Below the pieces are notes generated by a model. The model saw only the letters and a program-made list of their open reading frames with translations. It did no database searches and was not told where the DNA came from. From assembly GCA_035402805.1 (NCBI GenBank), contig DAONDY010000001.1:13697-77696 (forward strand): a DNA stretch of 64,000 nt, given 5' to 3'. The DNA comes from Candidatus Woesebacteria bacterium (GTDB lineage Bacteria; Patescibacteriota; Microgenomatia; UBA12405). Positions 4,106 to 20,427 of the stretch are shown here, piece after piece (positions within the stretch are counted from its first letter, which is position 1; the number at the start of each line of letters is the position of its first letter). A program made the position numbers and the translations under genes.

Positions 4106-4123
4106 TAACCTTATTTTCGCACA

Positions 4124-4402: not shown

Positions 4403-4472
4403 TATTTTATCTTATCTTTTACCTATTTACAACCATGTATAATCTGGTCGATAATCAGATATAATTCAAATC

Positions 4473-6086
4473 ATGACCTTAAAAGAAAGGATTCAGTTTA
4501 TAAGTCAAAAAAAACAAAATACCATTTTATCTGCCTCTCTGGTTTTAGGTGTCACTTTTGCCCTTTCTTCAATTCTAGGACTGCTTAGAAACCGTTTTCT
4601 TTATTCCAAATTTTTTTCCTGTTGCGTCGCCCAACTTGACGTTTATAATGCTGCTTTTCGTCTTCCAGATTTAATTTTTAAACTTTTGGTTACTGGTGTT
4701 TTATCAGCCTCTTTTATACCTGTTTTTTCCAGTTATTTACACAAAAATAAAAAAACTGCCGAGCAGGTTGCTTCAACGGTTATTAATCTTCTTTTAATTG
4801 CTTTTTCTGTTATTTCCATAATTGCCTTTATCTTTATTAAACCAATTTCTGCCTTAATTGCCGCCGGTTTTTCGCCAGATCAACTAGATTTGATGTCTAA
4901 TCTTAGTCGAATTTTACTTATCGCTCAAATATTTTTTCTTCTTAGTAATTTTGTTACTGCCATTCTTCAGGTCAATCAAATTTTTATCATTCCAGCACTC
5001 ACTCCCCTTGTCTACAATTTTTTCATCATTATCAGTATTTTTACCTTAGCTCCACTTTTTGGCATTTATGGTGTGGCCGTTGGTGCCGTTGTCGGTGCTT
5101 TTTTTCATCTAGCCATTCAAATTCCGGTTCTTCGTCGCCAAGGTTTTGTTTATTACCCCATAATTAAAACAAAGTTGAGTGGTGTTAAAGAGATTTTTCG
5201 CCTAATGATTCCTAGAATTTTATCCTTAGGTTTGGGTGAAATTGAAAATACAGTTACCTTATTTTTTGCCAGTACTCTAGCCTCCGGATCTATTTCTCTT
5301 CTAAATTTAGCTCTTCAATTTATGTATTTACCTAGTCGTATTTTTGGCACCACTGTTGGCCAGGCTTCACTACCAATTCTTTCCAAAAACATAGCCAAAA
5401 ATGAATTAGAAACATTTAGAAATACCGTTCACAAGATCATAACCCAAAGTTTATTTATAGCCGTACCAATCAGTGTTTTGATTTTGGTTGAAAGAGTCTC
5501 TATTATTAGACTTTTATATGGTTCTCGAGAATTTCCTTGGACGGCTACCATCCTGACTTCAAAAATCTTAGCTTTTTTGGTTCCCGGTATTATTTGCCAA
5601 GCCATAATTCAAATTTTAATCAGATCATTTTATGCCCTTCATAACACTAAAATTCCATTTTTTATCTCCATGACTTCCTTAGCCGCAAATATTATTACTA
5701 GTTATTGTTTTATTAACTTTACTAATCTTGGTGTTATTGGATTAGCAATTAGTGCTTCAATTGGTAATTTAATTCAACTTTTCGGTCTATTATTCACGTT
5801 TATTAAAGTTGTAGATGGATTTAATTGGCTAGTTATGTTTGTCAAATTTTATAAAATATCCATCTCTTCAATATTAATGGGTATTAGCAGTTGGTTGTCT
5901 ATTAAATTTTTAGATCTTTTTATTTTAGACACCACCCACGTTATCCCCGTTTTAACTTTAACTATTATTTCTTCATTTATAGGCTTAATTACCTATGTTT
6001 TTTCTGCTAACTTTTTGCATCTTGAAGAAATTAAAGACTACCGAAAATATTATTTAAGATTTAAGGATTTTATTTTCCATAAATAG
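4473..6086 (+). CDS. murJ: Lipid II flippase MurJ/MviN
   Basis: 537 aa polytopic membrane protein (~14 TM). MurJ-like N-terminus (LVLGVTFALSSILGLLRNRFL) and conserved R/D positions. Confidence 0.8.
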   Translation: MTLKERIQFISQKKQNTILSASLVLGVTFALSSILGLLRNRFLYSKFFSCCVAQLDVYNAAFRLPDLIFKLLVTGVLSASFIPVFSSYLHKNKKTAEQVASTVINLLLIAFSVISIIAFIFIKPISALIAAGFSPDQLDLMSNLSRILLIAQIFFLLSNFVTAILQVNQIFIIPALTPLVYNFFIIISIFTLAPLFGIYGVAVGAVVGAFFHLAIQIPVLRRQGFVYYPIIKTKLSGVKEIFRLMIPRILSLGLGEIENTVTLFFASTLASGSISLLNLALQFMYLPSRIFGTTVGQASLPILSKNIAKNELETFRNTVHKIITQSLFIAVPISVLILVERVSIIRLLYGSREFPWTATILTSKILAFLVPGIICQAIIQILIRSFYALHNTKIPFFISMTSLAANIITSYCFINFTNLGVIGLAISASIGNLIQLFGLLFTFIKVVDGFNWLVMFVKFYKISISSILMGISSWLSIKFLDLFILDTTHVIPVLTLTIISSFIGLITYVFSANFLHLEEIKDYRKYYLRFKDFIFHK

Positions 6087-6103
6087 TCGTATATACTGGA
6101 TAT

Positions 6104-6688
6104 ATGGCTGTAAAAAAAGAGATTTCTCTTTTACCTGAATCTGAAAATCCGAGATCTTTTGGAGCTCGCTTTTTTAAATGGATTACTACCACCGGCAGAG
6201 TTACCATAATTTTAACCGAACTAGTTGTCATTTCTGTTTTTATATCTCGATTTTGGTTGGATCGTAAAAATTCTGACCTTTCAGAAGTTGTTCGTCAAAA
6301 ACAAGCAATTTTAGAAAGTATCGTCCCCTTTGAAACTGAATTCGTCCAATTACAACAAAGATTAAATTATATTAAAGATTTCTATTCTAATCAGCCAGAA
6401 TACAGTAATCAAATTAATTCTCTAATAGTTAGTACTCCAGAAGACTTATTTTACGAGAGTCTCTCAGTTTCTAAAGATGAAAAGTTGAAGTCAACCGTTA
6501 TAAACACCTCTCTGGTTGCCTACAAAGAAGAAAGTATTGTTAATTTTATTACCAATTTAATGCTAAATTCGGATATTGATCAGGTTGATGTCAATAAAAT
6601 CGAGAAAAAAGAAAAGGAGAATAAATATTCTGTATCGTTAACTTTATTTTTTAAACCAACTAAGGCCAAAGTTGTTAGTAAAATATGA
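6104..6688 (+). CDS. PilN-like type IV pilus assembly protein (single-pass membrane protein)
   Basis: 194 aa. N-terminal ISLLPE resembles the INLLP motif of PilN, followed by one TM and a soluble domain. Overlaps the next gene by 4 nt. Confidence 0.3.
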   Translation: MAVKKEISLLPESENPRSFGARFFKWITTTGRVTIILTELVVISVFISRFWLDRKNSDLSEVVRQKQAILESIVPFETEFVQLQQRLNYIKDFYSNQPEYSNQINSLIVSTPEDLFYESLSVSKDEKLKSTVINTSLVAYKEESIVNFITNLMLNSDIDQVDVNKIEKKEKENKYSVSLTLFFKPTKAKVVSKI

Positions 6689-7311
6689 TCGACACTAAAA
6701 ATTGGTTTCAGCTTAGACCGATGTATAGCTATATTAGAAAACAAGCTGAAAATGAAAAATTTTTAAAATATTTGGAAATTGGAGGGACATTCACTTTAAT
6801 TACCATTTTCTTGTTCTTTACCATTATGCCTACTATGGTTGCTATCTCTTCATTAATTGGAGAAATTAAATCCAAAGAGGCTTTTATTAAAAAAGTTAAT
6901 TTAAAAATTTCTAATGTTATTAAAGCCCAAGAGTCTTATTCTCAAGTTCAGGAAAAATATTCTTTAATTGAAGATAGTTTTCCTACTCTTGGCCAGTATT
7001 ACAAAGGTACATCCAATTTGGCAACCATTTTTAAACAATCATCATTAGACATAAATCAAATTAGTTTAAATCTAGACAAAGACGATAAAGATAATAAAGA
7101 TCAATTTTTTGATTCTTACGAAGTTAATGTCAGTGGTGAAGGTCAATATTCTTCAATTTTAGAGATGGTTAAAAAAATATTTGATAACCGTCGATTAGTT
7201 GATACCATTAGTATTAAAATTAATCAGGTGCCAGATCAAAATAATTCAAGAAATATTAAGGTTAATTTATCTAGCGATTTATATTATTTACCAAATAATG
7301 AAAAAAAATAA
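6685..7311 (+). CDS. PilO-like type IV pilus assembly protein
   Basis: 208 aa: cytoplasmic N-terminus, one TM, a coiled-coil stretch, then C-terminal YEVNVSGEGQYSSILEMVKKIFDNRRLVDTISI...IKVNL, as in PilO. Confidence 0.4.
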   Translation: MIDTKNWFQLRPMYSYIRKQAENEKFLKYLEIGGTFTLITIFLFFTIMPTMVAISSLIGEIKSKEAFIKKVNLKISNVIKAQESYSQVQEKYSLIEDSFPTLGQYYKGTSNLATIFKQSSLDINQISLNLDKDDKDNKDQFFDSYEVNVSGEGQYSSILEMVKKIFDNRRLVDTISIKINQVPDQNNSRNIKVNLSSDLYYLPNNEKK

Positions 7312-7603
7312 AATTAGTTTATATTTTATATTTATATCTTTTCTTACTTTTGTAACAGTTTTTGTTTCTATTGTTCAAAAAAGTTATTTTAATTTTAAAA
7401 AACCGCAAGCATTAGTTGAAAATAATAGCTTATTAAAAGAAATAAACCCTAACTTAGATTTATCCGTTATCTCCACTATCGAATCTAAAAATAAAAACAT
7501 TGAAGAACCTTTTGATTTCTCTATTATTAAATCAAACAAAAAAGAAGATAATTCTAATCAAATAAGCACCTCTGCCGGTGCTTTAAATAAACCTACACCT
7601 TAA
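7298..7603 (+). CDS. Small single-TM protein (hypothetical; possible pilus assembly accessory or minor component)
   Basis: Track ORF 7199..7603 trimmed to the internal start MKKNKISLYFIFISF... N-terminal TM. Stop overlaps the start of the next gene (ATG at 7603). Confidence 0.3.
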   Translation: MKKNKISLYFIFISFLTFVTVFVSIVQKSYFNFKKPQALVENNSLLKEINPNLDLSVISTIESKNKNIEEPFDFSIIKSNKKEDNSNQISTSAGALNKPTP

Positions 7604-8904
7604 TGTTAAAAGAAAAAAAGATACCAACTATACTAGGACTTCTTATTTTGACTGGAGCTGTTTTTGCCGGCGCTGTTTTAACTAATAAAAGTACTGATTT
7701 TACATCTAGAGCCAGTGGCGATTGTAAACCCATAAATCCTCAAGTTACTAATATAACTAACAATTCTGCTTCAATCTCTTTTCTCACCGAATCATCATGC
7801 TTATCTTCGTTATCTATCAACAATCAAACCATTAATAACAACGCTGTTTTAAACAGTGATCAAAAAAGCAAAATACATTATTTTGATGTCGCCAATCTAG
7901 ATAGCTCAACTAAATATGAGTTTTCATTAATTAATGACGGCAAGACCTACAAAAATTCTTTATACAAATTTGAGACAGCTTTAGATCCAAACGGTTTAAT
8001 CCCTTCATCTAATTTAGCCTGGGGTCGTGTTTTTACACCAGAATTAAAAGCTGCTAGTAAAGTCATGGTTTTTATTAATATTCCTAATGCATCACCATTA
8101 TCTGCTTTAGTAACCACTTCTGGTAATTGGAATATTTCTTTAGCTAATAGTTTCAACGAGTCAAGAACCGACAGGTTTACTCCATCTGATAACATTTCAG
8201 AAGAAATTATTGTCATTGATCAAGAAAAACAAATTACTCAAATCAACGCCAACACCTCTCAAAATGATCCCACGCCAGATATAATTTTAGGTCAAAACCA
8301 ATTTTCTTCGTTACCAGTTACTTTCAACGCTGAAACCAATACCGGTTCATTATCCTCAATTACTCCTGTTCCAAATTCTAAAGAGTTAGATATTCTAAAT
8401 CCTCAAAATGACGAATCTATTTCAACCAAAAAGCCAGATTTTTTTGGTACTGGTCCAAGTAAATCCACCATTAAAATAGAAATTCATTCTTCAACTGTTT
8501 ATAGTGGAGAAGTTATTGTTAATGACGATGGTTCTTGGAATTGGTCTCCTCCTTCAGACTTAGCCCCAGGGGAACACACCATTACCGTTACCTTAAAAGA
8601 TAATGGTCTTGAAAAAATTATTTCCAAAAAATTTACAGTTTTAGCCACTGACAGTAATCTTTCTTATTCGGCTTCGCCCTCAGCCATAACTGTTACTCCT
8701 ACAATTTCTAGTGCTCCCACTCCAACTAGCACTCTTGCCCCCACCGTTACCCCTACCCCCACTTTAGTCCCAACAATTCGTACTAGTAAACCCAGCACCA
8801 GTTCTGGAGTTCCAGTTACCGGTAATTTAATTCCAACCGTTGGTTTGATTTTACTTTCGTCATCATTTATCGGCTTTTCTTTTCTCTCTTTTAAGAAAAA
8901 ATAA
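7603..8904 (+). CDS. Secreted Ser/Thr/Pro-rich surface protein with a C-terminal cell-wall-sorting-like signal (VPVTG + hydrophobic + KKK)
   Basis: 433 aa. N-terminal signal/TM, an FN3-like segment, a low-complexity T/P/S linker, and C-terminal VPVTGNLIPTVGLILLSSSFIGFSFLSFKKK. Confidence 0.5.
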   Translation: MLKEKKIPTILGLLILTGAVFAGAVLTNKSTDFTSRASGDCKPINPQVTNITNNSASISFLTESSCLSSLSINNQTINNNAVLNSDQKSKIHYFDVANLDSSTKYEFSLINDGKTYKNSLYKFETALDPNGLIPSSNLAWGRVFTPELKAASKVMVFINIPNASPLSALVTTSGNWNISLANSFNESRTDRFTPSDNISEEIIVIDQEKQITQINANTSQNDPTPDIILGQNQFSSLPVTFNAETNTGSLSSITPVPNSKELDILNPQNDESISTKKPDFFGTGPSKSTIKIEIHSSTVYSGEVIVNDDGSWNWSPPSDLAPGEHTITVTLKDNGLEKIISKKFTVLATDSNLSYSASPSAITVTPTISSAPTPTSTLAPTVTPTPTLVPTIRTSKPSTSSGVPVTGNLIPTVGLILLSSSFIGFSFLSFKKK

Positions 8905-8949
8905 TTCTGTTCTTAGGCTAAACATTTTTAGTGGTATGATAGTATATCG

Positions 8950-9879
8950 ATGTTGAAAGTAGTCAAGATTAGTTCCATTTTAGAAGAATTTCGTCCTGTT
9001 CAATGGATAAAAAATTTAGCTATTTTTGCCGCCATTATTTTAAATGGTCAGCTATTTAATAAAGAATTATTTTTTAAAAGTTTTTTTGCTTTTATCTCCT
9101 TTTGTTTATTATCTTCTTCTTCTTATGTGATAAACGATCTTCTTGATATTAATAAAGATCGTCTTCATCCCACTAAAAAAAACAGACCCATTGCCAGGGG
9201 TGATATACCTGAATATTTAGCTGCTTTTCTAGCTATTGCGCTTCTTATTTTAGGTTTAGCTATTGCTCTTTTTACCAGTTATGGATTTTTTGTTATTTCT
9301 CTAGTTTTTATTTTACTCCAATATGCTTACTCCTTATTTCTTAAGAAAAAAGCCATTATTGACATCGTCGGTATTGCCTTATTCTTTATAATTCGTGCCT
9401 ACGCCGGGGAAATTGTTACCGGTTATCATTTATCAATTTGGATTATGTTAGCCGTTATCTTTTTATCTTTATTTGTTGCTAGTGGTAAACGTCGTAGTGA
9501 ACTTGTTAACAGCGGAATAAAAACTCGCTCAGCTTTAGCTGGTTATGGTAAAAGTTTATTGAATTTTTATACCACCATGTTTGCTGTCTGTACTTTGATC
9601 ACCTACGCCATGTTTACTTTTTTTGAAGAATCAGTTACTTTCACTGGATCGGGATTTTTACATGGCTTTCTTTTAGAAAATTTTCCCAATGCCTTAAATA
9701 GAAAATGGTATATGATTACTCTTCTACCGGTGATATTTGGCATGATGCGATATGGTCAAATAATTTTTGAAATGCAGGAAGGTGAGAGACCAGAAAGAAT
9801 AATTGCTACCGATATACCTCTTTTACTTTCAGTCCTAACTTGGGGATTGATGATAATTGGTATCATTTATGCAATCTAA
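8950..9879 (+). CDS. UbiA-family polyprenyl-phosphate prenyl/phosphoribosyltransferase (decaprenyl-phosphate phosphoribosyltransferase-like)
   Basis: 309 aa, ~8 TM. NDLLDINKD matches the NDxxDxxxD Asp-rich motif of UbiA enzymes. Overall resembles the DPPR-synthase subfamily. Confidence 0.7.
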   Translation: MLKVVKISSILEEFRPVQWIKNLAIFAAIILNGQLFNKELFFKSFFAFISFCLLSSSSYVINDLLDINKDRLHPTKKNRPIARGDIPEYLAAFLAIALLILGLAIALFTSYGFFVISLVFILLQYAYSLFLKKKAIIDIVGIALFFIIRAYAGEIVTGYHLSIWIMLAVIFLSLFVASGKRRSELVNSGIKTRSALAGYGKSLLNFYTTMFAVCTLITYAMFTFFEESVTFTGSGFLHGFLLENFPNALNRKWYMITLLPVIFGMMRYGQIIFEMQEGERPERIIATDIPLLLSVLTWGLMIIGIIYAI

Positions 9880-11449
9880 TCGACTTCCAAAAGTAATTCT
9901 TTTATTGTTTTTTTTAATCATCACTGTTTTAACTCGCTTTTGTTTTTTAGATTGGGGAAATGGTTATTTTTTTAATCCAGATGAAAATAATATGGCCACA
10001 TCAGTGGCCCAAATGAATTATAAAAATTTTAATCCAAACTTTTTTGCCTATGGTCAATTTCCTCTTTTTTTGACTTTTTTTACTACACCATTACATAATT
10101 TTTCATCTATTGTTTTAACCCTTCGTTTTTGGTCAGCCGTTTTTTCTTGTCTTTCGATCTACTTTTTTTATTTGATTTCTAAAATTATTTTTAAATCAAA
10201 AAAAATTAGTTATATTTTTATTTTACTTTTAATTTTTACTCCAGGACTTATTCAATCTGCCCATTTTGGCACCACTGAGTCACTTCTTCTTTTTGTTTTT
10301 TCGGCTAACATTTTTTTATCTTTAAAATATTTTGAAAATCCTAAAAAGATATATTTTTTATTTTCTATTTTAGTCAGTGCTATTGGAATTGCTTCAAAAA
10401 TTACATCAGTTTTTTTTATTATGCCTTTTTACACCACTCTTTTTTTGACTTTTTTGAAAAACAAAAAAATTTTTAATTTTATTTCTATTACTTTTATATT
10501 TACTTTTTTGACGCTACTTTTATCTCTTCTTTTTTCTCCATTTAATATTATTAAATTTTCTGATTTTAAATCATCCATGGTTTACGAAACATCAGTTGCC
10601 GCTGGATCTATTAGGGTTTTTTACACCAGACAATTTGAAGGTTCATTGCCATACATTTTTCAATTTCAAAAGGTTTTTCCTTATGCTAATGGTATTTTTA
10701 TTTTTACTTTTTCATTTATTGGTTTTTTACTTTTTTTATTAGGTTTTAAGCGTTTAACTCCTGATACTAAAAAGAAATTATCAATTTTATTAATTCCTTC
10801 AATAATTTATTTTATTTATACTGGCCAACTTTTTGTTAAATGGACCAGATTTATGTCTCCACTTTTTTTTATTGGTCCGTTTTTTTGTTTATTTATTTTT
10901 CAAAAATTAAAGAAAAAATTATTAATTTTTATTTTATTAATACTAATGATTAGTCCTGGTTTATATTTCTTCCAGAAATATTTTTCAAAAGATATTAGAA
11001 TTTATGCTTCAGATTTCATTAAATCAAACATCCCAGCAGATTCTTTCGTCCTGTCTGAATCCGGTAACGTTGTTAATTTTCCTGTCAATTATCCCGATCT
11101 TCAGGTAAATAATTTTAATTTTTACGAGTTAGATTCAAATGAAAACAATCTAATCAAATTAACTGATGCTTTAACTTCATCTGATTATGTTTTTATCCCT
11201 TCCCGTCGAGTTTTCAAAAATCAAAATAACAAAAATTATCCGCTATCTCAAAAATATTATCAAAATTTATTTTCTGGAAATATTGGTTTTGTTGAAATAA
11301 AAAAAATCAGTCGTCAAAAAGATCTCTTTTTGAATTCTGAAAATGCCGAAGAAACCTGGTCTGTTTTTGATCAACCAACAATCAGAATTTATAAAAAAAA
11401 TATTAATTTAAGTCCAGATGATTATCAAGAATTACTCTCATCTAATTAA
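9857..11449 (+). CDS. GT-C fold membrane glycosyltransferase (PMT_2 / ArnT-like, GT39/GT83 family)
   Basis: 530 aa polytopic. N-terminal loop with NPDENN (the DE motif of ArnT/PMT_2). Large C-terminal soluble domain. Confidence 0.65.
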   Translation: MVSFMQSNRLPKVILLLFFLIITVLTRFCFLDWGNGYFFNPDENNMATSVAQMNYKNFNPNFFAYGQFPLFLTFFTTPLHNFSSIVLTLRFWSAVFSCLSIYFFYLISKIIFKSKKISYIFILLLIFTPGLIQSAHFGTTESLLLFVFSANIFLSLKYFENPKKIYFLFSILVSAIGIASKITSVFFIMPFYTTLFLTFLKNKKIFNFISITFIFTFLTLLLSLLFSPFNIIKFSDFKSSMVYETSVAAGSIRVFYTRQFEGSLPYIFQFQKVFPYANGIFIFTFSFIGFLLFLLGFKRLTPDTKKKLSILLIPSIIYFIYTGQLFVKWTRFMSPLFFIGPFFCLFIFQKLKKKLLIFILLILMISPGLYFFQKYFSKDIRIYASDFIKSNIPADSFVLSESGNVVNFPVNYPDLQVNNFNFYELDSNENNLIKLTDALTSSDYVFIPSRRVFKNQNNKNYPLSQKYYQNLFSGNIGFVEIKKISRQKDLFLNSENAEETWSVFDQPTIRIYKKNINLSPDDYQELLSSN

Positions 11450-13091
11450 TTCGCATAAAAAATCTTTTTTATTATTATCAATAATATTGATAGCTATTTT
11501 TTTTAGGACTATCGGTTTTAATTGGGATCAAGGTCAACATCTTCATCCAGACGAAAGGTTTTTAACTATGGTTTTAACCAAAGTTAAAATTCCTTTATCT
11601 TTAAAAGATTATTTAAACCCTCAAACCTCAACCTTAAATCCATATAATAATAATTTTAATTTTTTTGTCTATGGTTCTTTTCCTCTAAACTTAGTTAAGT
11701 TGGCAGGTGAGCTTTTAAACAAAACAAATTACCAACAAATTCATTTTATTGGTCGGGGATTAACTATCTTGGCTGACGTTTTAATCGTTCTATTAATTTA
11801 TTTAATCTCCAAAAAAATTTTTAATCAAAAAATCGCTCTTTTATCTTCTTTTTTTTATTCTATCTGTGTATTTCCAATTCAGCTTTCTCATTTTTATACG
11901 GTTGATCCTTTTTTAAATTTTTTTATAGTTTTAAGTTTTTACTTTTTAATTCTTTTAAAAGATAAAAACAAAGTTCTGTTTAAATTGTTTTTATTATCAG
12001 TTTCTTTCGGAATTGCCGTTGCTTGTAAAATTTCTGCAGTTTACTTTTTACCGGTTATAATAATATTTTTATTTTTTTATTTCATTAAAAAACCACTAAG
12101 GTTTATTTTTTATAGTCTATTTTTAGCCATTTTATCGTTGATTATTTTTAGAATTAATCAACCACAAGTTTTCTCCACCGGTAATTTTTTAAATTGGAAA
12201 CCTAATCCCCAATTTATTTCTAACTTAAAGGAACTTCAAAGTTATAACAAAATGCCTTTCTATCCGCCAGGAATTCAATGGTTAAAATCTCTTCCTCTAA
12301 TTTTTCCTCTCAAAAATATTGTCTTTTGGGGAACTGGGTTACCTCTTGGAATTATTTTCATTTTTTCTTGTTTTTATTCAATTTTTTTTATCTTTAAAAA
12401 AGGCATTCTAAAAAATTTTTATTTTTTTAGTATTGTTTTTTGGATATTAATTTTATTTTTTTACCAAGGAAGTCAGCATGTCACTACTATGCGTTATTTT
12501 TTACCAGTTTATCCATTTTTATGTATTACTTCTGCTTTTTTTATTTATCAAACAAAATTTTTAAGTTCAAAATTAGTAAAAGTCTTATTTTTTATAATTT
12601 TATTATTCTATCCAATCTGTTTTATTTCCATTTATTTTAAAGATCATACTAGAATTGCCGCTTCTAAATGGATTTATCAGAACATTCCATCAGGTAGTGT
12701 TTTAGCTACCGAATATTGGGATGACAGTTTGCCATTATCAGTTGGTAAAAACTCACTTTATAGTTATCAATATCAAAACTTAGATATTGCTAGTCAAGAT
12801 TCACCCCAAAAAATAAACAAACTTAAACAGCAATTAGAAAAAACAGATTTTGTTATTCTTTCTTCAGGGCGTTTTTACTTAACTATTCCTAAAAATTCGG
12901 ACATTTATCCATTAACTACTAAATATTATCAATCGCTTTTTGATGGTTCTCTTGGTTTTATAAAAGTCGCTGAATTTAATTCATACCCTGTTTTTAATGA
13001 TACTTCAGCCGAGGAAGCTTTCACTGTTTACGATCATCCCAAAGTGATTATTTTTCAAAAGACTTCAAATTTTGATTTAAATTCTTTCTGA
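11418..13091 (+). CDS. GT-C fold membrane glycosyltransferase (PMT_2 / ArnT-like), paralog of the previous gene
   Basis: 557 aa. HLHPDERF motif in the first loop. Same architecture as 9857..11449. Confidence 0.65.
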   Translation: MIIKNYSHLINSHKKSFLLLSIILIAIFFRTIGFNWDQGQHLHPDERFLTMVLTKVKIPLSLKDYLNPQTSTLNPYNNNFNFFVYGSFPLNLVKLAGELLNKTNYQQIHFIGRGLTILADVLIVLLIYLISKKIFNQKIALLSSFFYSICVFPIQLSHFYTVDPFLNFFIVLSFYFLILLKDKNKVLFKLFLLSVSFGIAVACKISAVYFLPVIIIFLFFYFIKKPLRFIFYSLFLAILSLIIFRINQPQVFSTGNFLNWKPNPQFISNLKELQSYNKMPFYPPGIQWLKSLPLIFPLKNIVFWGTGLPLGIIFIFSCFYSIFFIFKKGILKNFYFFSIVFWILILFFYQGSQHVTTMRYFLPVYPFLCITSAFFIYQTKFLSSKLVKVLFFIILLFYPICFISIYFKDHTRIAASKWIYQNIPSGSVLATEYWDDSLPLSVGKNSLYSYQYQNLDIASQDSPQKINKLKQQLEKTDFVILSSGRFYLTIPKNSDIYPLTTKYYQSLFDGSLGFIKVAEFNSYPVFNDTSAEEAFTVYDHPKVIIFQKTSNFDLNSF

Positions 13092-14225
13092 AAATAATCT
13101 TTCATAATTATTTATAGTTTTTTTATAATCAAAAATTTTAATATTTTTATTAAATTTATCTTTATAGTATTTTTTTTGTTTTTTTAAAACTAATTCCAAT
13201 TTATTAGCCAAATCAATTTCATTTTTATTCTCAAATAATTCTCCTAAGCCAGTTTTAAGGACAGGAACTCTCATCCCTGGTAAGTTGGTTGCCACACATG
13301 GTGTTCCGCACTTCATCGCTTCTATCTGAACCCAACCAAATGATTCTAAAGTGTCATCACTTGGTAGAACTAAAACATCAATTTTTTTATAAAAATTAGA
13401 TAAAAATTTTCTTTCAATGTTTTCCAAAAAGAAAAATTTATTTTTTAAAATTTTTTTATATTTTCTTTTTAAAAAATCATAATAATTTTCGCCAATGACT
13501 TTAGTCGGTCCTGCCATTAATATTACATAATTTTCTTTACCTAGTTTTTCATCAAGTAAAACTGTAGATTTTATTAATAATTCAATTCCTTTTTGTTTAG
13601 CGATTCTTCCGCAAAAACCAATTACATATTTTTTATTTTTGATTATGTTTTTAATCTTTTTTTCCAGTTTAATATTTCTTTTTTTTTCAAATTTAATCGG
13701 TGGATAAATGGCTACTGTTTTGTTTAAAAATCTTTTTAAAAAATATGAATTTTTAGCATAATCACTAGTATAAGAAATTATTTTATTTGACAATAAAGCG
13801 GCTAAATATTGACAAATAAAAACACCGCCATCTATTAATTTATTTTTAAAACCTTTCCAGAAACTTAAATCAGTGTGATGAGTTAAAAAAACTTTTTTAT
13901 TTAAAATTTTACCGACAATTGCTACCCAGAATGATTCTGGTTGAGGTAGGTGGCAATTGACCACATCATGTTTTTTTATTTCTTTTATTGATTCAGCTAA
14001 AAAAGATGGAATAATCGGACCTTTACCTATTTTAAAAGCAATTTTTAGTCGTTTTATTTTAACTCCATTAGTAACCTCTTCTTTATTTGTTTTTAAATCA
14101 TGCCAACTTGTCAAAATCGTAACCTCATGTCCTTTTTTTACTAGTTCCTCTGCTAATATTTTGATATATATTGTAATTCCCGAAACATTAGGCAAATAGT
14201 ATGGTGTTGAAATCAATATTTTCAC
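13077..14225 (-). CDS. Glycosyltransferase family 4 (GT-B fold)
   Basis: 382 aa. N-terminal MKILISTPYYLPNVSGI and C-terminal ESFGWVQIEAMKCGTPCV (EX7E motif). Confidence 0.8.
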   Translation of the reverse strand: MKILISTPYYLPNVSGITIYIKILAEELVKKGHEVTILTSWHDLKTNKEEVTNGVKIKRLKIAFKIGKGPIIPSFLAESIKEIKKHDVVNCHLPQPESFWVAIVGKILNKKVFLTHHTDLSFWKGFKNKLIDGGVFICQYLAALLSNKIISYTSDYAKNSYFLKRFLNKTVAIYPPIKFEKKRNIKLEKKIKNIIKNKKYVIGFCGRIAKQKGIELLIKSTVLLDEKLGKENYVILMAGPTKVIGENYYDFLKRKYKKILKNKFFFLENIERKFLSNFYKKIDVLVLPSDDTLESFGWVQIEAMKCGTPCVATNLPGMRVPVLKTGLGELFENKNEIDLANKLELVLKKQKKYYKDKFNKNIKIFDYKKTINNYERLFSERI

Positions 14226-14268
14226 AACTGAATTATAACAATATTCAAAAAGGATTTATAATAAATGA

Positions 14269-14841
14269 ATGATTTTTTTAAAATCACTTTTATTTTGGCA
14301 ACCGAAAAAAGATTGGCTTGTCTGGTTTGAACAGAATTTATTAAGAAAAAAAATTCTTATCGTCTTGAATTATATAATTTGGCTTTTCTTTTTCTTTATT
14401 TCATATCTTCTGATTAAAAAAGACGCTAATGTTTTTTGGCAGATTCTTATCGCCACCATCGTTGCAGAACTCCTTGAGCGTTTCCTAAAAAATAAAATTT
14501 ATTGGCGCCGCCCACTTTTTAAGAAAAATGATGACGTTCCTCCTGGATTAGTTAAAAAATGGTATAAAACCGGTTCCTTTCCCTCGGGTCATACTATTAA
14601 GGCTTTTTATTTTCTTTTTTTTATTATTCAGTATCAGGTTTTTTCAGTTCCCTTATTTTTATCAATAGTCTCACCGCTTTTATTTTTTCGCATTTTTATT
14701 GGTTTTCATTACCCCATAGACATGTTTGGTGGAGCAGTTACCGGTATTCTAGTTTGGTTGTTATCAAAATGGATTATTTTCCCAATTTTTCTTACCAATA
14801 TATTTAAAACTATTTTTAATTTTATTTTTTTTATAAAATAA
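14269..14841 (+). CDS. PAP2-family lipid phosphatase (membrane)
   Basis: 190 aa. KxxxxxxRP (KNKIYWRRP), PSGH (SFPSGHT) and H...D (GFHYPID) motifs. Confidence 0.75.
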   Translation: MIFLKSLLFWQPKKDWLVWFEQNLLRKKILIVLNYIIWLFFFFISYLLIKKDANVFWQILIATIVAELLERFLKNKIYWRRPLFKKNDDVPPGLVKKWYKTGSFPSGHTIKAFYFLFFIIQYQVFSVPLFLSIVSPLLFFRIFIGFHYPIDMFGGAVTGILVWLLSKWIIFPIFLTNIFKTIFNFIFFIK

Positions 14842-14862
14842 TATTTTTATGACTAATATGTA

Positions 14863-14911
14863 TTTCTCCCTTTTATCAAGGGGAGATGTCCGAAGGACAG
14901 AGGGGTTTTGA
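14863..14911 (+). repeat. Copy A of a ~49-nt two-hairpin repeated element (UCUCCC-loop-GGGAGA; UGUCC-GAA-GGACA; GAGGGGUUUUG)
   Basis: Near-identical copies at 22217-22267, 47404-47452 and 52283-52330 (- strand). Hairpin 2 shows compensatory substitutions between copies. Confidence 0.7.
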
Positions 14912-14915
14912 CTTT

Positions 14916-17003
14916 ATGTTGTCAGATTTAACCTCTATTTTTTCTTGGTGGTTTTTGATTTTTTCTTTAGGTCTTTTAACTTTACCGGTAACATTTTTTT
15001 TATTTCAAAAATTTTGGGATAAAGGCTATATTTTTTCTAAAATTATTTGCATTATTATTGCTACTTATCTAATTTTTATTGGTGGAGTTTCTAAAATTTT
15101 GACTTTCACTAATTTAAATTTATTTATAGTTCTAGGCATAATCATTATATTGAATCTTTTATTCCTTAAACAAGGCAAAAATTTATCTTTATTTTTAAAA
15201 ACAATTAAAGAAAATTACCGGGTTTTTATTTTCCAAGAACTACTCTTTCTTTTAATTTTAATTAGTTGGTCTTTTGTTCGTGGTTTCGCTCCAGACATCG
15301 AGGGTTTGGAAAAATATATGGATTGGGGTTTTATAAATTCGGCCTTAAGATCAAAATTTTTACCACCACAAGATATGTGGTTTTCCGGTGAAGTAATAAA
15401 TTATTATTATTTTGGTCATTTAATTTTTGCCGTTTTAACTAAATTAAGTAATATTAGTTCAGCTATTACTTATAATTTATCCATCGCCACTGTTTGTGCT
15501 CTAACTTTTGCTTCCTCTTTTTCCCTTGCTTCTAATTTGGTTTACCTTTCTTTAAAAAAAATCAATTTTAAAAAAGTCGTCACTGCTGGTTTAATTTCCG
15601 CTCTTTTATTGACTTTTGGAGGCAATCTTCATTCGGTTTACAAGATTGCTAAAATAAATATCCAAGATAACGGCAAATTAGTTTTATCAAAGCAAGCTCT
15701 CAAAGAATCAGTTGGCAAATATTGGTACCCAGACGCCACTCGTTTTATTGGTCATGATCCCGATATTAAAGATAAAACCATTCATGAATTTCCAGTTTAT
15801 AGTTTTGTGGTTGCCGACCTTCATGGTCATATGAATGACATTCCTGTTGTTTTATTTTTTATGGCCTTTTTATTCGCTACCAGCTTCTCTTTATCAGGAT
15901 TAATAAATTATCTTGTCATTATTGTTTCCGGATTTATTTTATCAATTACCTATATGACCAATGCTTGGGATTTTGCCATTTATGGTCTTCTTTTTGCCAT
16001 CTTCACTTTCTTTATAAATCTTAAAAATGATAAAAAATCAGCTGTTAAAAAAACTTTAATTAACGGAATTTTAACAATTGCTGTTTGGTTTATTTTTAGT
16101 ATTCCTTTTTCTATGAATTTTGTTCCCATGACTAATGGAATAAAAATTTCTGATAGCCATAGCCCCTTTTATCAATTATTTATTTTATACGGTGGTTTTT
16201 GGCTGATCTGTTTACCATTTATTGTTTTGATATTTAAAAAATTTATTGTAAATTGTAAATTGAAAATTGAGAATTCAGATCTATTTGTTCTGGCCGTTAT
16301 TGTTACTGCCACTCTTTTGATAATTATTCCAGAATTAATTTATTTAAAAGATATTTATATTTATGAACATCGTCGGGCTAATACTATGTTTAAGTTGGTC
16401 TATCAATCATTTATTATGTATTCTTTAATTTCTGGTTATGTCTTTTATAAAACCAGATCTTTGTTAAAATCTAAAATTTTAAATAATTTATTTGGGTTTT
16501 TATTTACTGTAATTTTCTCAATTCATTTGATCTATCCCTATTTTGCCATTAAGTCTTTTTATGGTCTTAAAAATTATCAAGGGCTTTGGGGTTTGAATTA
16601 TTTAAAAGATTCCTATCCTGACAATTTAAAAGCTATTGATTGGATTAACAAAAATATTTCTGGTCAACCAATAATGCTGGAAGCAGTCGGTGATAGTTAT
16701 ACTACTTTTAATCAAATTTCTGTTGCCACCGGCCTCCCCACAGTCGAAGGGTGGATAGTCCACGAATGGCTTTGGCGCGGTGGCTATGACAAACCAAAAC
16801 AACGCCAAGATGATGTTCGTTCCATTTATGAAGATAAGGATATTAATAGATTGAAAGTTCTAATTAAAAAATATGATATTAAATATATCTTTATTGGCTC
16901 CAAAGAATACGAAAAATATCCCAACTTAAACGAAGATAATTTTATAAAAATTGGTGGAAAAATAATTTATCAGTCTGGTAAAACTAAGATTTACCAACTA
17001 TAG
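14916..17003 (+). CDS. DUF2298-like polytopic membrane protein (putative GT-C-type glycosyltransferase)
   Basis: The track ORF starts at 14886 inside the repeat element; ATG at 14916 is more plausible. >12 TM, conserved YYYFGHL segment typical of DUF2298. Confidence 0.5.
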   Translation: MLSDLTSIFSWWFLIFSLGLLTLPVTFFLFQKFWDKGYIFSKIICIIIATYLIFIGGVSKILTFTNLNLFIVLGIIIILNLLFLKQGKNLSLFLKTIKENYRVFIFQELLFLLILISWSFVRGFAPDIEGLEKYMDWGFINSALRSKFLPPQDMWFSGEVINYYYFGHLIFAVLTKLSNISSAITYNLSIATVCALTFASSFSLASNLVYLSLKKINFKKVVTAGLISALLLTFGGNLHSVYKIAKINIQDNGKLVLSKQALKESVGKYWYPDATRFIGHDPDIKDKTIHEFPVYSFVVADLHGHMNDIPVVLFFMAFLFATSFSLSGLINYLVIIVSGFILSITYMTNAWDFAIYGLLFAIFTFFINLKNDKKSAVKKTLINGILTIAVWFIFSIPFSMNFVPMTNGIKISDSHSPFYQLFILYGGFWLICLPFIVLIFKKFIVNCKLKIENSDLFVLAVIVTATLLIIIPELIYLKDIYIYEHRRANTMFKLVYQSFIMYSLISGYVFYKTRSLLKSKILNNLFGFLFTVIFSIHLIYPYFAIKSFYGLKNYQGLWGLNYLKDSYPDNLKAIDWINKNISGQPIMLEAVGDSYTTFNQISVATGLPTVEGWIVHEWLWRGGYDKPKQRQDDVRSIYEDKDINRLKVLIKKYDIKYIFIGSKEYEKYPNLNEDNFIKIGGKIIYQSGKTKIYQL

Positions 17004-17009
17004 TTAATT

Positions 17010-18905
17010 TTGTCCATGAAAGATATTTTAGAAGGTTTAAACCCACCTCAAAAAAAAGCCGTCACCCATATCGGTTCTCCCTTACTATTATTGGCCGGAG
17101 CCGGTTCTGGTAAAACTCGGGTTTTAACCCATCGAGTGGCTTATTTTATTCAACAAAAAATAGCTAAACCTTCAGAAATTTTGCTTTTAACCTTTACTAA
17201 TAAGGCCGCGGAAGAGATGAAAAATCGCACCACCAAGCTTTTGTCGGCAATCAATAGGTCGGAAAATAAAAGTTTTTTTGCTGGTACTTTTCACTCTTTC
17301 TGTTGCCGTGTTTTACGTGTTGACGGTCACCATATTGGTATTCCGCCCAAATTTGTTATTTACGATGCTAACGATCAAGAAAACTTAGTTAAAAATATTC
17401 TTCATGAATTAGGTCTAACCACCAAAGAATTTAAACCCTCAAGTGTTCTTTATTACATCGAAGCGGCTAAAAATTCTTTTCAAACTCCAAAAGAAATGAT
17501 CGCTCAAAGCCATGGTTTTTGGGAAGATTATGCCGCTAAAATTTATTCGCTTTATCAGAAGAAAATGTTTGAATTTCACGCTCTCGATTTTAATGATCTT
17601 CTTTTTAAAACTACTGAATTATTTTTAGAACATCCAGAAGTTCTGGATAAATATCAGGAAATATACAAATTTATTATGGTTGATGAGTATCAGGATACTA
17701 ACCAAATTCAATATCTTCTCACCAAACTTTTAGCCAAAAAATATAATCAAATTACCGTAGTTGGTGATGCTTCTCAAGCTATTTATGGTTGGCGTGGAGC
17801 CGATTACCGAAATCTGATAAGTTTTACTGCCGATTTTAAAAAAACCAAAGTTATTAATCTCGAGGAAAACTATCGATCTACTCAAATTATTCTTGACGCC
17901 GCCAATGCAATTATTTCTAAAAATAATTCTCATCCGGTTTTAAAATTATTTACCCAAAAAACATCAGAAGACAAAATAAAAGTTTTTGAAGCTGAATCTG
18001 AAGTTGCCGAGGCAGATTTTATTGCCCAAAAAATTAAATTTATCAACGATAATTTTAAAATTCCTCTTCGAGATATTGCCGTTCTTTATCGTATGAACGC
18101 CCAATCGCGTGTTTTGGAAGAAGCGTTTTTACGCCTTAGTATTCCTTATGTTCTGCTTGGTGGCACTCGTTTTTATGAACGTGCCGAAATTAAAGATATT
18201 TTATCTATGCTCCGTTTTGCTAGTAATAATGCTGATCATATTTCCGAAGAAAGAATTGATAAAGCTCTTGGTAAACGTAAAAAATCCCTTCTTTTAGAAC
18301 ATCTTAAAGATATGGATTTAGATAATTTAACCTCTCTTCAAATTTTAGAATCGCTGGTTGTTAATTCCGGTTATCTTGATAAATTTGATGCTAAAGATGA
18401 GGAGGATCAAAAAAGAATTGAAAATATTAAAGAATTAAAATCTGTCGCTGCTGCTCATCCTAGTCTAAGCGGCTTTTTGGAAAATGTTACCTTAGTCCAA
18501 CAAGAGTATTCACTTCAAGAAAAGAATAAAAAAAAGGAAAATCGAGACGGTGTTAAATTAATGACCCTTCATAGTGCTAAAGGTTTGGAATTTGAAGTAG
18601 TTTTTATAGTTGGTTTTGAAGAGGGAATTTTGCCTCATTCTCGTTGTTTGATTAATGAGTCTGAAATTGAAGAAGAGCGTCGTCTTTGTTACGTCGGTAT
18701 TACCCGTGCTAAAGATTATCTTTATATTTCTTATGCTACTCGTCGTTTATTTTTTGGCAAAAGCAGTTTAAATGAACCCAGTCGTTTTCTTGCTGATATT
18801 CCCTCAGAACTAGTCGAATTTGAAGAAAGCGAAGAACTTATTCGTGATTATCGTCATCCTAAAAAGAACGATGATGATCTCGTCTATGATCCTGATATTT
18901 ATTAA
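17010..18905 (+). CDS. pcrA: UvrD/PcrA/Rep-family ATP-dependent DNA helicase
   Basis: 631 aa. Walker A GAGSGKT, motif II VDEYQDTN, and TLHSAKGLEF, VGITRA later in the protein. Confidence 0.85.
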   Translation: MSMKDILEGLNPPQKKAVTHIGSPLLLLAGAGSGKTRVLTHRVAYFIQQKIAKPSEILLLTFTNKAAEEMKNRTTKLLSAINRSENKSFFAGTFHSFCCRVLRVDGHHIGIPPKFVIYDANDQENLVKNILHELGLTTKEFKPSSVLYYIEAAKNSFQTPKEMIAQSHGFWEDYAAKIYSLYQKKMFEFHALDFNDLLFKTTELFLEHPEVLDKYQEIYKFIMVDEYQDTNQIQYLLTKLLAKKYNQITVVGDASQAIYGWRGADYRNLISFTADFKKTKVINLEENYRSTQIILDAANAIISKNNSHPVLKLFTQKTSEDKIKVFEAESEVAEADFIAQKIKFINDNFKIPLRDIAVLYRMNAQSRVLEEAFLRLSIPYVLLGGTRFYERAEIKDILSMLRFASNNADHISEERIDKALGKRKKSLLLEHLKDMDLDNLTSLQILESLVVNSGYLDKFDAKDEEDQKRIENIKELKSVAAAHPSLSGFLENVTLVQQEYSLQEKNKKKENRDGVKLMTLHSAKGLEFEVVFIVGFEEGILPHSRCLINESEIEEERRLCYVGITRAKDYLYISYATRRLFFGKSSLNEPSRFLADIPSELVEFEESEELIRDYRHPKKNDDDLVYDPDIY

Positions 18906-18922
18906 CTTGTTAAAATATATCT

Positions 18923-19966
18923 ATGGTTAGCAGAATTCTTACTGAAAAAGATAGAGAAAAATACAATAAATTAATTATTCACCCAGTTCAAACGTGGGAG
19001 TGGGGAGATTTTCAAATTTCCCAAGGTCATAAAGTTTATCGTCTTGGTTGTTTTGATGACCAAGATAAAATGATTTCTGCTTATTCTGTAAGTTTTCATA
19101 AAATTCCTAAAACTAAGTTTTCTATTGGAACAATTCTTCGTGGTCCAGAAATTAATGACGAAATGGTAAATAAAATTAATGAAATTGCCCAAAAGGAAAA
19201 TGCCATTTTTGTTAAGTTTGAATCAAATTCTATCTATAAAAATTATGATTCTTTCAACAATGAAACCTTAGTTAATTCCAAACCACAATTTCTTAATTTA
19301 AAAAAATCGCCTAAAGTTGCCTTTTATCCTTTCACTTATTTAATTGATTTAACTAAAACCGAAGATCAACTTCTAGAATCGATGCATCCTAAAACTCGTT
19401 ACAACATTAGAGTTGCCAATCGTTATGGAGTTGAAGTTAGGGAACAGACCGACGATAAAGGTTTTGAAATTTATTTAAAATTGCTTTTTGACACCACTAA
19501 ACGTCAAGGTTTTTATCTTCATAATGAAAAATATCATCGTGATTTATGGAAGAAATTAAAATCCACTGGCATGATTCATATTATGTTGGCCTCTTACCAA
19601 AACCAAGTTTTATCTGCTTTTATGATTTTTAACATTAAGGATCGACTTTTTTATCCCTACGGTGCTTCTCTCGATACCAATCGTCAAGTCATGGCTCCGA
19701 CTCTTTTGATGTGGGAAGTAATTAAACTTGGTCAGAAATTAAAATGTAGCACTTTTGACATGTGGGGTTGTCTTGGTCCTCACGCTAAAGAAAATGAAAA
19801 TGGTTACGGTTTTCATAGATTTAAGCAAGGTTTTGGTGGTCAACTAGTCGAGTATGTTGGAACTTATGATTTAGTCACCAATCCGGTTTTGTACAAAATA
19901 TACAATTCTGTTGATAAAATTCGTTGGTATCTTCTTCGTCTCAAAGCTTCAATCTTTAAAAAATAA
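18923..19966 (+). CDS. FemAB-family peptidoglycan interpeptide-bridge aminoacyltransferase (FemX-like)
   Basis: 347 aa. The N-terminal IHPVQTWEWGDFQ matches the FemX/FemAB signature (QSWEWGEFK). Two GNAT-like halves. Confidence 0.65.
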   Translation: MVSRILTEKDREKYNKLIIHPVQTWEWGDFQISQGHKVYRLGCFDDQDKMISAYSVSFHKIPKTKFSIGTILRGPEINDEMVNKINEIAQKENAIFVKFESNSIYKNYDSFNNETLVNSKPQFLNLKKSPKVAFYPFTYLIDLTKTEDQLLESMHPKTRYNIRVANRYGVEVREQTDDKGFEIYLKLLFDTTKRQGFYLHNEKYHRDLWKKLKSTGMIHIMLASYQNQVLSAFMIFNIKDRLFYPYGASLDTNRQVMAPTLLMWEVIKLGQKLKCSTFDMWGCLGPHAKENENGYGFHRFKQGFGGQLVEYVGTYDLVTNPVLYKIYNSVDKIRWYLLRLKASIFKK

Positions 19967-19973
19967 AAAAGAA

Positions 19974-20009
19974 GGGTGTATATTACAAAAAGTTAAAAAA
20001 TATACACCC
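19974..20009. terminator. Bidirectional hairpin (10-bp perfect stem GGGTGTATAT / ATATACACCC, 16-nt loop) between convergent genes
   Basis: Inverted repeat at 19974-19983 and 20000-20009. Lies between the FemX-like gene (+) and 20017..20400 (-). Confidence 0.5.
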
Positions 20010-20016
20010 CTAAAGG

Positions 20017-20400: not shown

Positions 20401-20427
20401 TTTTTAAAAAATAGGTTAAAATAGACT

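Follow-up and report, generated by a model that had tools for sequence, protein, structure and literature searches.

A cluster of six genes lies between positions 8950 and 17003 of a 64,000-nucleotide stretch of contig DAONDY010000001.1 (the window, meaning the whole stretch of DNA analysed). Sequence and gene context indicate that it is probably a cell-envelope glycosylation system running on a polyprenyl-phosphate-linked pentofuranose. ORF calling and Pfam searches, with window ORFs (open reading frames) of at least 100 aa scanned and matches counted above the gathering score, recovered the six genes of the original prediction at the same coordinates and with the same domains; NCBIfam matches agree. 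The gene order recurs in related loci, and the clustering of the UbiA, GT-C (glycosyltransferase of fold C), PAP2 and DUF2298 genes is not due to chance.

8950..9879, forward strand: UbiA-family protein and probable phosphoribosyltransferase, 309 aa; Pfam UbiA, 92.1 bits.
9869..11449, forward strand: GT-C 1, PMT_2 type, 526 aa; Pfam PMT_2, 33.8 bits.
11418..13091, forward strand: GT-C 2, PMT_2 type, 557 aa; Pfam PMT_2, 50.9 bits, and PMT (PF02366), 33.2 bits.
13077..14225, reverse strand: GT4, a Leloir-type, cytoplasmic glycosyltransferase of the GT-B class, 382 aa; Glycos_transf_1, 105.7 bits, and Glyco_transf_4, 52.2 bits.
14269..14841, forward strand: PAP2 lipid phosphatase, 190 aa; Pfam PAP2, 41.8 bits (cut-off 27.2).
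14886..17003, forward strand: DUF2298/chlor_Arch_YYY protein, 705 aa; PF10060, 319.5 bits, and TIGR03662, 474 bits (cut-off 300).

The start of GT-C 1 was taken as the ATG at 9869, where it overlaps the 3' end of the UbiA gene; the mechanical ORF begins at a TTG at 9857.

The first gene very probably encodes a polyprenyl-phosphate 5-phosphoribosyltransferase (PPPRS) of the Rv3806c type, the decaprenyl-phosphoribose (DPPR) synthases, because its product passes the cut-off of the model NF008978, has Rv3806c as its best solved relative and carries invariant phosphoribose contacts. NF008978, the NCBIfam equivalog for decaprenyl-phosphate phosphoribosyltransferase, scored 211.3 bits (cut-off 207), and the sister DPPR synthase models NF008977 and NF008976 scored 179 and 165 bits. 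The HAD-fused model PRK08238, named 'UbiA family prenyltransferase', gave 170 bits across its UbiA half, and the models for heme O, UbiA, MenA-type, GGGP and ChlG enzymes gave 20-56 bits. The top match in the PDB is Mycobacterium tuberculosis Rv3806c (8j8j), with an E-value of 8e-39 over approximately the full length, followed by the archaeal AfUbiA with an E-value of 7.5e-9.

The residues in contact with Mg2+, pyrophosphate, ribose and the 5'-phosphate are set out in the structure paper on Rv3806c, according to which the wider UbiA superfamily does not conserve the contacts to phosphoribose. These residues were mapped through the alignment of the PDB match, and their invariance was scored across 54 orthologues. 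The Mg2+/pyrophosphate site of Rv3806c (R22, N73, D77, K87, R90, Y138, K143) corresponds to R15, N62, D66, K76, R79, Y127 and K132, and the phosphoribose contacts K28, Y70, Q135 and Y157 correspond to K21, Y59, Q124 and F146. The 11 listed contacts to 5-phosphoribosyl 1-pyrophosphate (PRPP) and Mg2+ are all matched, with Tyr157 as the Phe that also occurs in some mycobacteria, and all are invariant in 54/54 orthologues. The same holds for D70 of the motif NDxxDxxxD (N62-D63-x-x-D66-x-x-x-D70). Rv3806c K208 is the sole contact left unmatched, and its neighbouring Arg is matched.

An aromatic or heme prenyltransferase of the MenA, UbiA or CyoE type, with a superficial likeness to the mycobacterial enzyme, would also give a generic Pfam UbiA match and the NDxxDxxxD motif, both of which are superfamily-wide; nothing else favours that identity. 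The gap between the prenyltransferase and DPPR synthase scores and the invariant contacts to phosphoribose and 5'-phosphate effectively refute it, no quinone or heme pathway genes are encoded in the window, and its probability is very small. The original prediction, which had likened the protein to Rv3806c rather than to menaquinone or heme O enzymes, is upheld on this point.

The PAP2 protein is proposed to be the 5'-phosphatase of polyprenyl-P-ribose-5-phosphate, a functional analogue of Rv3807c, and gene context makes this role probable. The three signatures of the family are intact, namely C1 KxxxxxxRP (K74-x6-R81-P82), C2 PSGH (S103-x-P105-S106-G107-H108) and C3 SRxxxxxHxxxD (R141-x5-H147-x3-D151), and their residues are invariant in 30 orthologues. 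A PAP2 gene is present in 56 of the 58 UbiA-type loci and in neither of the two syntenic loci that lack UbiA (L086 and L091), a co-occurrence with a Fisher p of 0.003 uncorrected for phylogeny. Intact motifs and co-occurrence argue that the phosphatase belongs to the cluster, where the original prediction had placed it, and is not an unrelated housekeeping undecaprenyl-pyrophosphate (UPP) phosphatase. Ahead of the C1/C2 loop there are only two hydrophobic segments, which should put the N-terminus and this loop on one side of the membrane. Their Lys+Arg means are 5.3 and 6.6, respectively, against 0.9 or less in the loops of the opposite side, and by the positive-inside rule the active site is predicted to face the cytoplasm. 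Such an orientation would fit the dephosphorylation of freshly made polyprenyl-P-ribose-5-P and not the recycling of UPP. The genes for Rv3807c and Rv3806c are adjacent in M. tuberculosis, and so are the PAP2 and PPPRS genes PsPA7_6245/6246 in Pseudomonas aeruginosa.

A HAD-like protein of 180 aa (c12) was considered as a stand-in 5'-phosphatase. It occurs in the PAP2-less UbiA-type loci L054 and L092, but also in the UbiA-less L086 and L091, and always lies beside the GT4 gene; it was set aside as a speculative substitute.

The sugar of the donor is probably ribofuranose. Among the window ORFs there is no DprE1 (FAD_binding_4 oxidase) and no DprE2, a reductase of the short-chain dehydrogenase/reductase (SDR) family, and neither was found in 57 related loci either, whose variable cassettes contain just a GalE-like SDR. 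The original prediction had left it to be seen whether a PRPP synthase and an epimerase are encoded elsewhere; the 64 kb of the window contain no PRPP synthase and no SDR epimerase. Because DprE1/DprE2 and an SDR epimerase are missing from the window, the donor is probably polyprenyl-P-ribofuranose and not its arabinofuranose counterpart, and arabinose is not implied. A C55 lipid carrier would be likelier than a C50 one.

The original prediction of three GT-C enzymes is supported by structure prediction and fold search, which place the two PMT_2 proteins and the DUF2298 protein in the GT-C fold. The fold assignment was taken from AlphaFold2 models because profile searches against PDB sequences were marginal: neither PMT_2 protein had a significant match (Pmt2, E 0.29; ArnT, E 0.14), the DUF2298 profile gave a marginal match or none, and no significant similarity to the Aft or Emb families was detected by these searches. 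GT-C 1 and GT-C 2 are paralogues (hhalign probability 100%, E 2e-76). PMT_2 is above cut-off for both, PF02366 for GT-C 2 alone, and no MIR domain was matched in either protein by Pfam. The model of GT-C 1 (pLDDT 85, pTM 0.85) retrieved in Foldseek only GT-C enzymes, namely STT3, PglB, ALG12, ALG9, DPY19, ArnT and Pmt, with TM-scores of about 0.5. Each of the three proteins has an invariant acidic residue in its predicted first external loop. GT-C 1 carries the invariant P41-D42-E43-N45 directly after its first transmembrane (TM) helix, and GT-C 2 the invariant H43-P44-D45-E46-R47. Orthologues of GT-C 2 share 27-75% identity, far below the 62-91% of the neighbouring UbiA protein.

The DUF2298 protein is supported by its model as a GT-C fold protein to which no known family is clearly closest. 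The arabinosyltransferases AftA, AftB and AftD are among its best structural matches, and the fold matches give them no edge over oligosaccharyltransferase (OST), PMT and ALG enzymes; alignment with GT-C 2 by hhalign gave a probability of 58%. In addition to D45 of the first external loop, E142 and D146 are invariant in a second conserved loop, beside the YYYxG motif, which is itself invariant as N172-Y-Y-Y-F-G177. Clustering at 50% identity gives about 6,400 clusters for the family, of which 2,224 match at E <= 1e-30. Some orthologues bear a C-terminal LysM, a peptidoglycan-binding domain (P0006, P0025, P0032, P0034 and P0036), which Pfam does not match in the DUF2298 protein of the window.

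For the analysis of conservation, 80 loci were retrieved with the UbiA protein from different Shapirobacteria/Microgenomates assemblies. The order MurJ, PilN-like, PilO-like, small TM protein, Big_13, UbiA, GT-C 1, GT-C 2, variable segment, PAP2, DUF2298, UvrD and FemAB recurs on every contig that extends far enough to show it. About 60-80 Shapirobacteria-type genomes share this order. Between the GT-C genes and PAP2 lies a hypervariable cassette, 0 to about 7 kb long, which in the window holds the GT4 gene alone. The GT4 gene, on the opposite strand in the window, is found in 29 of about 57 related loci and is a cassette gene and not a core gene; its product reached the cut-off of no NCBIfam model and gave a weak sub-threshold match to monoglucosyl-diacylglycerol synthase. 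A GalE-like SDR epimerase (PF01370, with TGxxGxxG and YxxxK) adjoins PAP2 in 12 loci, for example at L031:14801-15847. The other cassette genes encode FkbM-type and class I methyltransferases, extra PMT_2-type or unclassified polytopic proteins, DUF362 and the HAD-like protein. Examples are:

L063:14909-15586 and L042:10946-11707: FkbM methyltransferases.
L044:12781-13839: DUF362 protein.
L036:10671-12320, L022:15768-17285, L049:14778-16454 and L060:14046-15521: extra PMT_2 GT-Cs.

The G+C content of the window, about 32%, drops to about 0.25 across 10-14 kb against about 0.32 elsewhere. The hypervariable cassette and this dip suggest diversifying selection or exchange of surface-glycan genes, and surface-glycan loci typically pair a constant donor pathway with tailoring and transferase genes that vary. 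In the loci L009 (10001-13248) and L052 both PMT_2 GT-C genes are absent, and PAP2 and DUF2298 come directly after UbiA. The DUF2298 ORF of L009 is shortened to 467 aa, and this locus may be decaying rather than a minimal functional core.

A gene that constantly accompanies the cluster, outside the coordinates of the original prediction, encodes a secreted protein with a Big_13 Ig-like domain, and the window also includes a sortase gene.

7603..8904, forward strand: Big_13 Ig-like secreted protein, 433 aa; Big_13, 44 bits.
51563-52282: sortase.

At its C-terminus the Big_13 protein has a Thr/Pro-rich stalk and, after it, a sortase-type signal made up of VPVTG, a hydrophobic helix and KKK; no other window protein combines such a stalk with a sortase signal. 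Nearly all of the approximately 70 orthologues with a complete C-terminus carry a Pro/Thr-rich linker and the motif 'PSTSSG[VI]PxTG' ahead of a TM helix and a basic tail. In every locus with an upstream flank the gene precedes the first gene of the cluster, including the UbiA-less L086 and L091, as a direct neighbour in about half of the loci and at a distance of 0.3-3.5 kb in the remainder. Pro/Thr-rich linkers are classical substrates of bacterial PMT-type enzymes. In P. aeruginosa the GT-C enzyme TfpW O-glycosylates a surface protein, the pilin, with a pentofuranose. Adjacency and analogy lead us to suggest, tentatively, that the stalk of the Big_13 protein is the acceptor. Protein O-glycosylation is preferred here because Pro/Thr-rich linkers suit PMT-type enzymes and because of the precedent of TfpW.

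With the same donor, the GT-Cs might instead polymerise or branch a pentofuranose wall polymer or lipoglycan, similar to arabinan or lipoarabinomannan, linked to peptidoglycan or to a glycolipid made by the GT4. Serial GT-Cs act in mycobacterial arabinan synthesis, and the matches of DUF2298 to AftA, AftB and AftD and the LysM of some of its orthologues point the same way, as do the peptidoglycan genes MurJ and FemAB that flank the cluster. In the UbiA-less loci a gene for a LytR-CpsA-Psr (LCP) ligase lies directly 3' of DUF2298 (L086:12116-12955, L091:12350-13306). GT4 enzymes make glycolipid primers elsewhere, and the weak match of the window GT4 to monoglucosyl-diacylglycerol synthase is in line with such a role. 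On the other hand, the window has no LCP gene and its DUF2298 protein has no LysM, the GT4 is missing from half of the loci, the constant neighbour is a Pro/Thr-rich protein with a sortase signal, and the fold matches favour arabinosyltransferases no more than OST, PMT or ALG enzymes. We consider the wall polymer fairly unlikely.

The GT-C pair was also followed beyond this lineage, by inspecting two Microgenomates loci and, from other lineages, homologues with 33-46% identity to DUF2298. In Phycisphaerae, Riflebacteria, Acidobacteria and Ozemobacteraceae a flavoprotein of 440-480 aa is encoded immediately 5' of DUF2298. The two genes appear translationally coupled, with a 4-nt overlap in three of the four lineages. 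Three of the four flavoproteins correspond to the NCBIfam 'hypothetical protein' PRK07233 (440-466 bits), the acidobacterial one is nearer PRK07208, and their Pfam matches are Amino_oxidase/NAD_binding_8. Riflebacteria, Acidobacteria and Ozemobacteraceae also have a nearby gene for a small GT2 that resembles polyprenyl-P-sugar synthases.

L085:8685-10004, L087:8365-9783, L090:8622-10004, L086:1372-2658 and L091:1390-2652: flavoproteins, PRK07233.
L089:5468-6919, Acidobacteria: relative similar to PRK07208.

The PRK07233 flavoprotein was considered as a putative pyranose-furanose mutase: its best PDB matches are similar to protoporphyrinogen oxidase and phytoene desaturase, and UDP-galactopyranose mutase (UGM) matched with an E-value of 3e-3 over the FAD-binding N-terminus only. 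In a deltaproteobacterium, a UGM (TIGR00031, 342 bits) and a small ArnC/PgfS-like GT2 are encoded just upstream of a protein of 1591 aa in which regions similar to GT-C 2 and DUF2298 are fused (L088:5233-10008). An acidobacterium has a PMT_2 and DUF2298 fusion of 1328 aa (L089:745-4731), and a separate stand-alone DUF2298 follows each fusion. The fusions support the view that the PMT_2-like and DUF2298 proteins form an independent functional unit. This GT-C pair appears not to be tied to a pentose donor, and the module that makes the donor looks exchangeable. These swaps weaken the idea of DUF2298 as an intrinsic pentofuranosyltransferase and strengthen that of an enzyme consuming a polyprenyl-P-monosaccharide made by adjacent genes. 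A shared furanose-donor theme, with galactofuranose through UGM and ribofuranose through PPPRS, is possible.

Several observations weigh against a single pathway based on a pentofuranose donor. The UbiA protein exceeds the cut-off of NF008978 by a margin of merely about 4 bits. The subfamily models matched by the PAP2 protein, those of UPP or phosphatidylglycerol-phosphate phosphatases (YbjG, PgpB, LpxE), are all below threshold. In L086 and L091, Microgenomates loci that are otherwise syntenic, a PRK07233-type flavoprotein occupies the slot of UbiA and PAP2 is absent; in other phyla the PMT_2-like/DUF2298 pair occurs without UbiA/PAP2, so the pair is not donor-specific. The flanks MurJ, UvrD and FemAB are as conserved as the cluster, and vertical inheritance in gene-dense genomes may explain part of the synteny within one class. 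No Pfam match to a flippase of the small multidrug resistance (SMR)/'MATE' type similar to ORF14, or of the GtrA-like or ArnE/F-like type, was obtained among the window ORFs, and no small intergenic ORF of the window has three or more TM helices. MurJ was considered as the missing flippase and set aside: it scores above the cut-off of the equivalog model for lipid II flippases, has other peptidoglycan genes as neighbours and is probably housekeeping.

Alternatively, the genes might be neighbours and not one pathway, the GT-Cs using another donor (for example, a polyprenyl-P-hexose, from a GT2 encoded elsewhere), PAP2 being the UPP phosphatase of peptidoglycan recycling and the PPPRS product having another use. 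The presence of the GT-C pair without UbiA/PAP2 in L086, L091 and five other phyla, with a GT2, a UGM or a flavoprotein, speaks for such independence, together with the weak best matches of PAP2 and the equal synteny of the housekeeping flanks. Promoter and terminator scans of positions 4000-20500 gave counts equal to the shuffled expectation, and no operon signal. Against this, the known uses of the PPPRS product are only as a glycosyl donor or donor precursor, and L086 and L091 have lost PAP2 with UbiA yet keep the peptidoglycan genes. The stop of UbiA overlaps the start of GT-C 1, no GT2 polyprenyl-P-sugar synthase is encoded in the window, and the predicted inward site of PAP2 is ill-suited to UPP recycling. 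Separate pathways thus seem quite improbable, and use of the pentose donor by the GT-Cs is slightly favoured.

In the proposed pathway, the UbiA enzyme would move 5-phosphoribose from PRPP onto polyprenyl phosphate at the cytoplasmic face of the membrane, a step with strong sequence support. PAP2 would then strip the 5'-phosphate to give polyprenyl-P-ribofuranose, as its motifs, co-occurrence with UbiA and inward topology suggest. With no epimerase in the window the sugar would probably stay ribofuranose; in about a dozen relatives the SDR epimerase beside PAP2 may yield another pentofuranose. A transporter encoded outside the cluster would flip the lipid-linked sugar outward, where the three GT-Cs, enzymes of predicted fold whose donor and acceptor we infer, would pass it to a surface acceptor. 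The likeliest acceptor would be the Thr/Pro-rich stalk of the Big_13 protein, with a peptidoglycan-linked wall polymer as the main alternative, and the cytoplasmic GT4, as a strain-variable member of the cassette, would diversify the glycan. The original prediction of a lipid-linked sugar donor and extracytoplasmic transfer stands as regards the PPPRS, PAP2 and GT-C proteins; the GT4 does not belong to the core, and use of the donor by all three GT-Cs is inferred.

A wider view would take the GT-C pair as a phylum-spanning two-enzyme module that builds furanoside surface glycans from polyprenyl-phosphate-linked furanoses with interchangeable donor modules, the product in the Candidate Phyla Radiation (CPR) being a ribofuranosylated, sortase-anchored stalk. 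The donor modules would be PPPRS and PAP2 in Shapirobacteria, UGM and a GT2 in the deltaproteobacterium and the PRK07233 flavoprotein elsewhere. This generalisation is speculative and, in our judgement, unlikely. If it were true, a hypervariable surface glycan, epimerised or methylated in some strains, might play a part in attachment to hosts or escape from phages in small-genome epibiotic bacteria.

The window is dense with housekeeping genes (MetRS, MurJ, UvrD, GatA/B, DnaK/J, NusA, IF2, PNPase, RNase J, ProRS, FtsK, AlaRS, sortase and YceG). The nearest public loci are from assemblies of Candidatus Shapirobacteria/Microgenomates (CPR), in which UbiA shows 62-92% identity, and the source is taken to be a groundwater bacterium of this group with a tiny genome. 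Their public annotation already names parts of the cluster, as 'glycosyltransferase family 39 protein' for GT-C 1 (the identical P0121) and as 'DUF2298 domain-containing protein', the DUF2298 protein of the window likewise having an identical NCBI entry. Many contigs of metagenome-assembled genomes that are syntenic with Shapirobacteria at 60-80% protein identity are titled Gammaproteobacteria, Methanoperedens, Parcubacteria or Clostridia (for example, L004, L006, L007, L009, L039 and L086), and the taxonomic labels of these mistitled records are unreliable.

Other features of the window are the following:

6104-6688, 6685-7311 and ~7301-7603: three small single-pass membrane proteins between MurJ and Big_13, kept in all related loci; two give weak sub-threshold matches to PilN and PilO, and no PilM, pilin or secretion ATPase is encoded nearby; they may be part of the glycosylation/surface-protein unit or of an assembly resembling a pilus or divisome.
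49359-51566: ORF of 735 aa with no Pfam or NCBIfam match, directly 5' of and overlapping the sortase gene; no xPxTG signal is recognisable at its C-terminus.
55608-59718: region that also contains large ORFs with no Pfam or NCBIfam match.
60872-61480: Thr/Pro-rich and Cys-rich protein of 202 aa matching Pacifastin_I, VWC and TILa (28.5, 25.1 and 19.7 bits), eukaryote-type domains that are unusual in a bacterial genome.

If the proposed pathway is correct, lipid-linked pentofuranose glycosylation extends to the CPR. The cell envelopes of these bacteria are almost unstudied, and their surface structures are thought to mediate an episymbiotic life. The best-known case of lipid-linked pentofuranose chemistry is the mycobacterial cell wall, a drug target; its extension to the O-antigens of Gram-negative bacteria is recent. 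For DUF2298, a large family with no assigned function, a testable proposal is made, that of a GT-C transferase fed by a polyprenyl-P-monosaccharide. The Big_13 protein would be a specific candidate glycoprotein substrate, the cluster as a whole would open a first way into the surface glycans of CPR bacteria, and the variable cassette and the swap of UbiA/PAP2 for a flavoprotein would amount to a natural experiment on the recombination of donor and transferase modules.

No paper describing this cluster was found in the literature, and nothing relevant on DUF2298 or on UbiA proteins, phosphoribosyltransferases or GT-Cs of Patescibacteria. Four known systems can be compared with it. The GT39 PMTs, that is, the eukaryotic PMT and actinobacterial Pmt enzymes, share with the two PMT_2 proteins the PMT_2/PMT matches, the GT-C fold and an Asp-Glu pair that opens the first external loop (D42-E43 in GT-C 1 and D45-E46 in GT-C 2, both invariant), and Thr/Pro-rich regions are typical acceptors of the bacterial Pmt enzymes. 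In contrast, the PMT_2 proteins of the cluster have marginal similarity to solved PMTs, lack the MIR domain and carry a distinct conserved C-terminal alpha/beta domain with the motif AEExxxVxDxP. There is no polyprenyl-P-mannose synthase nearby, and the adjoining donor pathway is predicted to make a pentose.

The system for O-arabinofuranosylation of group IV pilin in P. aeruginosa (PsPA7_6245-6249 and TfpW) also has an adjacent PAP2 and PPPRS pair and a surface-protein gene beside the glycosylation genes, and TfpW is an ArnT-like GT-C that puts a pentofuranose on Ser/Thr of the surface protein. It differs in requiring DprE1/E2 and a GtrA-like protein, which are absent here, and in using one multifunctional GT-C, whereas the window encodes three. 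The candidate acceptor here is an Ig-like protein with a sortase signal and a Pro/Thr-rich stalk, not a pilin.

In the three-component pentofuranose systems, such as that of Citrobacter youngae O1/O2, a PPPRS, a phosphatase, a flippase and a GT-C add ribofuranose, xylofuranose or arabinofuranose outside the membrane (Kelly et al., PNAS 2024, PMC11127046), and an SDR epimerase is by itself enough to switch the sugar, converting lipid-linked ribofuranose to xylofuranose. The ORF15-ORF14-ORF12 system of C. youngae resembles the cluster in its UbiA-family PPPRS with the same catalytic motifs, its phosphatase step and its final GT-C, as well as in an optional SDR epimerase, found in relatives of the window locus, and in strain-to-strain variation of the cassette. 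The phosphatase is an N-terminal HAD (PRP) domain in C. youngae and a separate PAP2 here, and the cluster has no small SMR/'MATE'-type flippase gene. Three GT-Cs of the PMT_2 and DUF2298 types stand against one, ORF12 (CAZy GT136; catalytic residues D31, E34, H106 and R349), and the PMT_2 and DUF2298 model matches suggest that these families differ from GT136. The host here is a wall-bearing CPR bacterium with no O-antigen, and the acceptor is possibly a protein.

The mycobacterial pathway of decaprenyl-phospho-arabinose (Rv3806c, Rv3807c, DprE1/DprE2, AftA-D and EmbA-C) has the same PPPRS contacts, a clustered PAP2-type phosphatase and several external GT-Cs. As the window has no DprE1/DprE2, D-arabinose is not predicted here; galactan and mycolate genes are also missing, and the GT-Cs are not significantly similar in sequence to Aft or Emb. 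The cluster is not categorically new; it would follow the same logic as the building of mycobacterial arabinan, with different, uncharacterised transferases.

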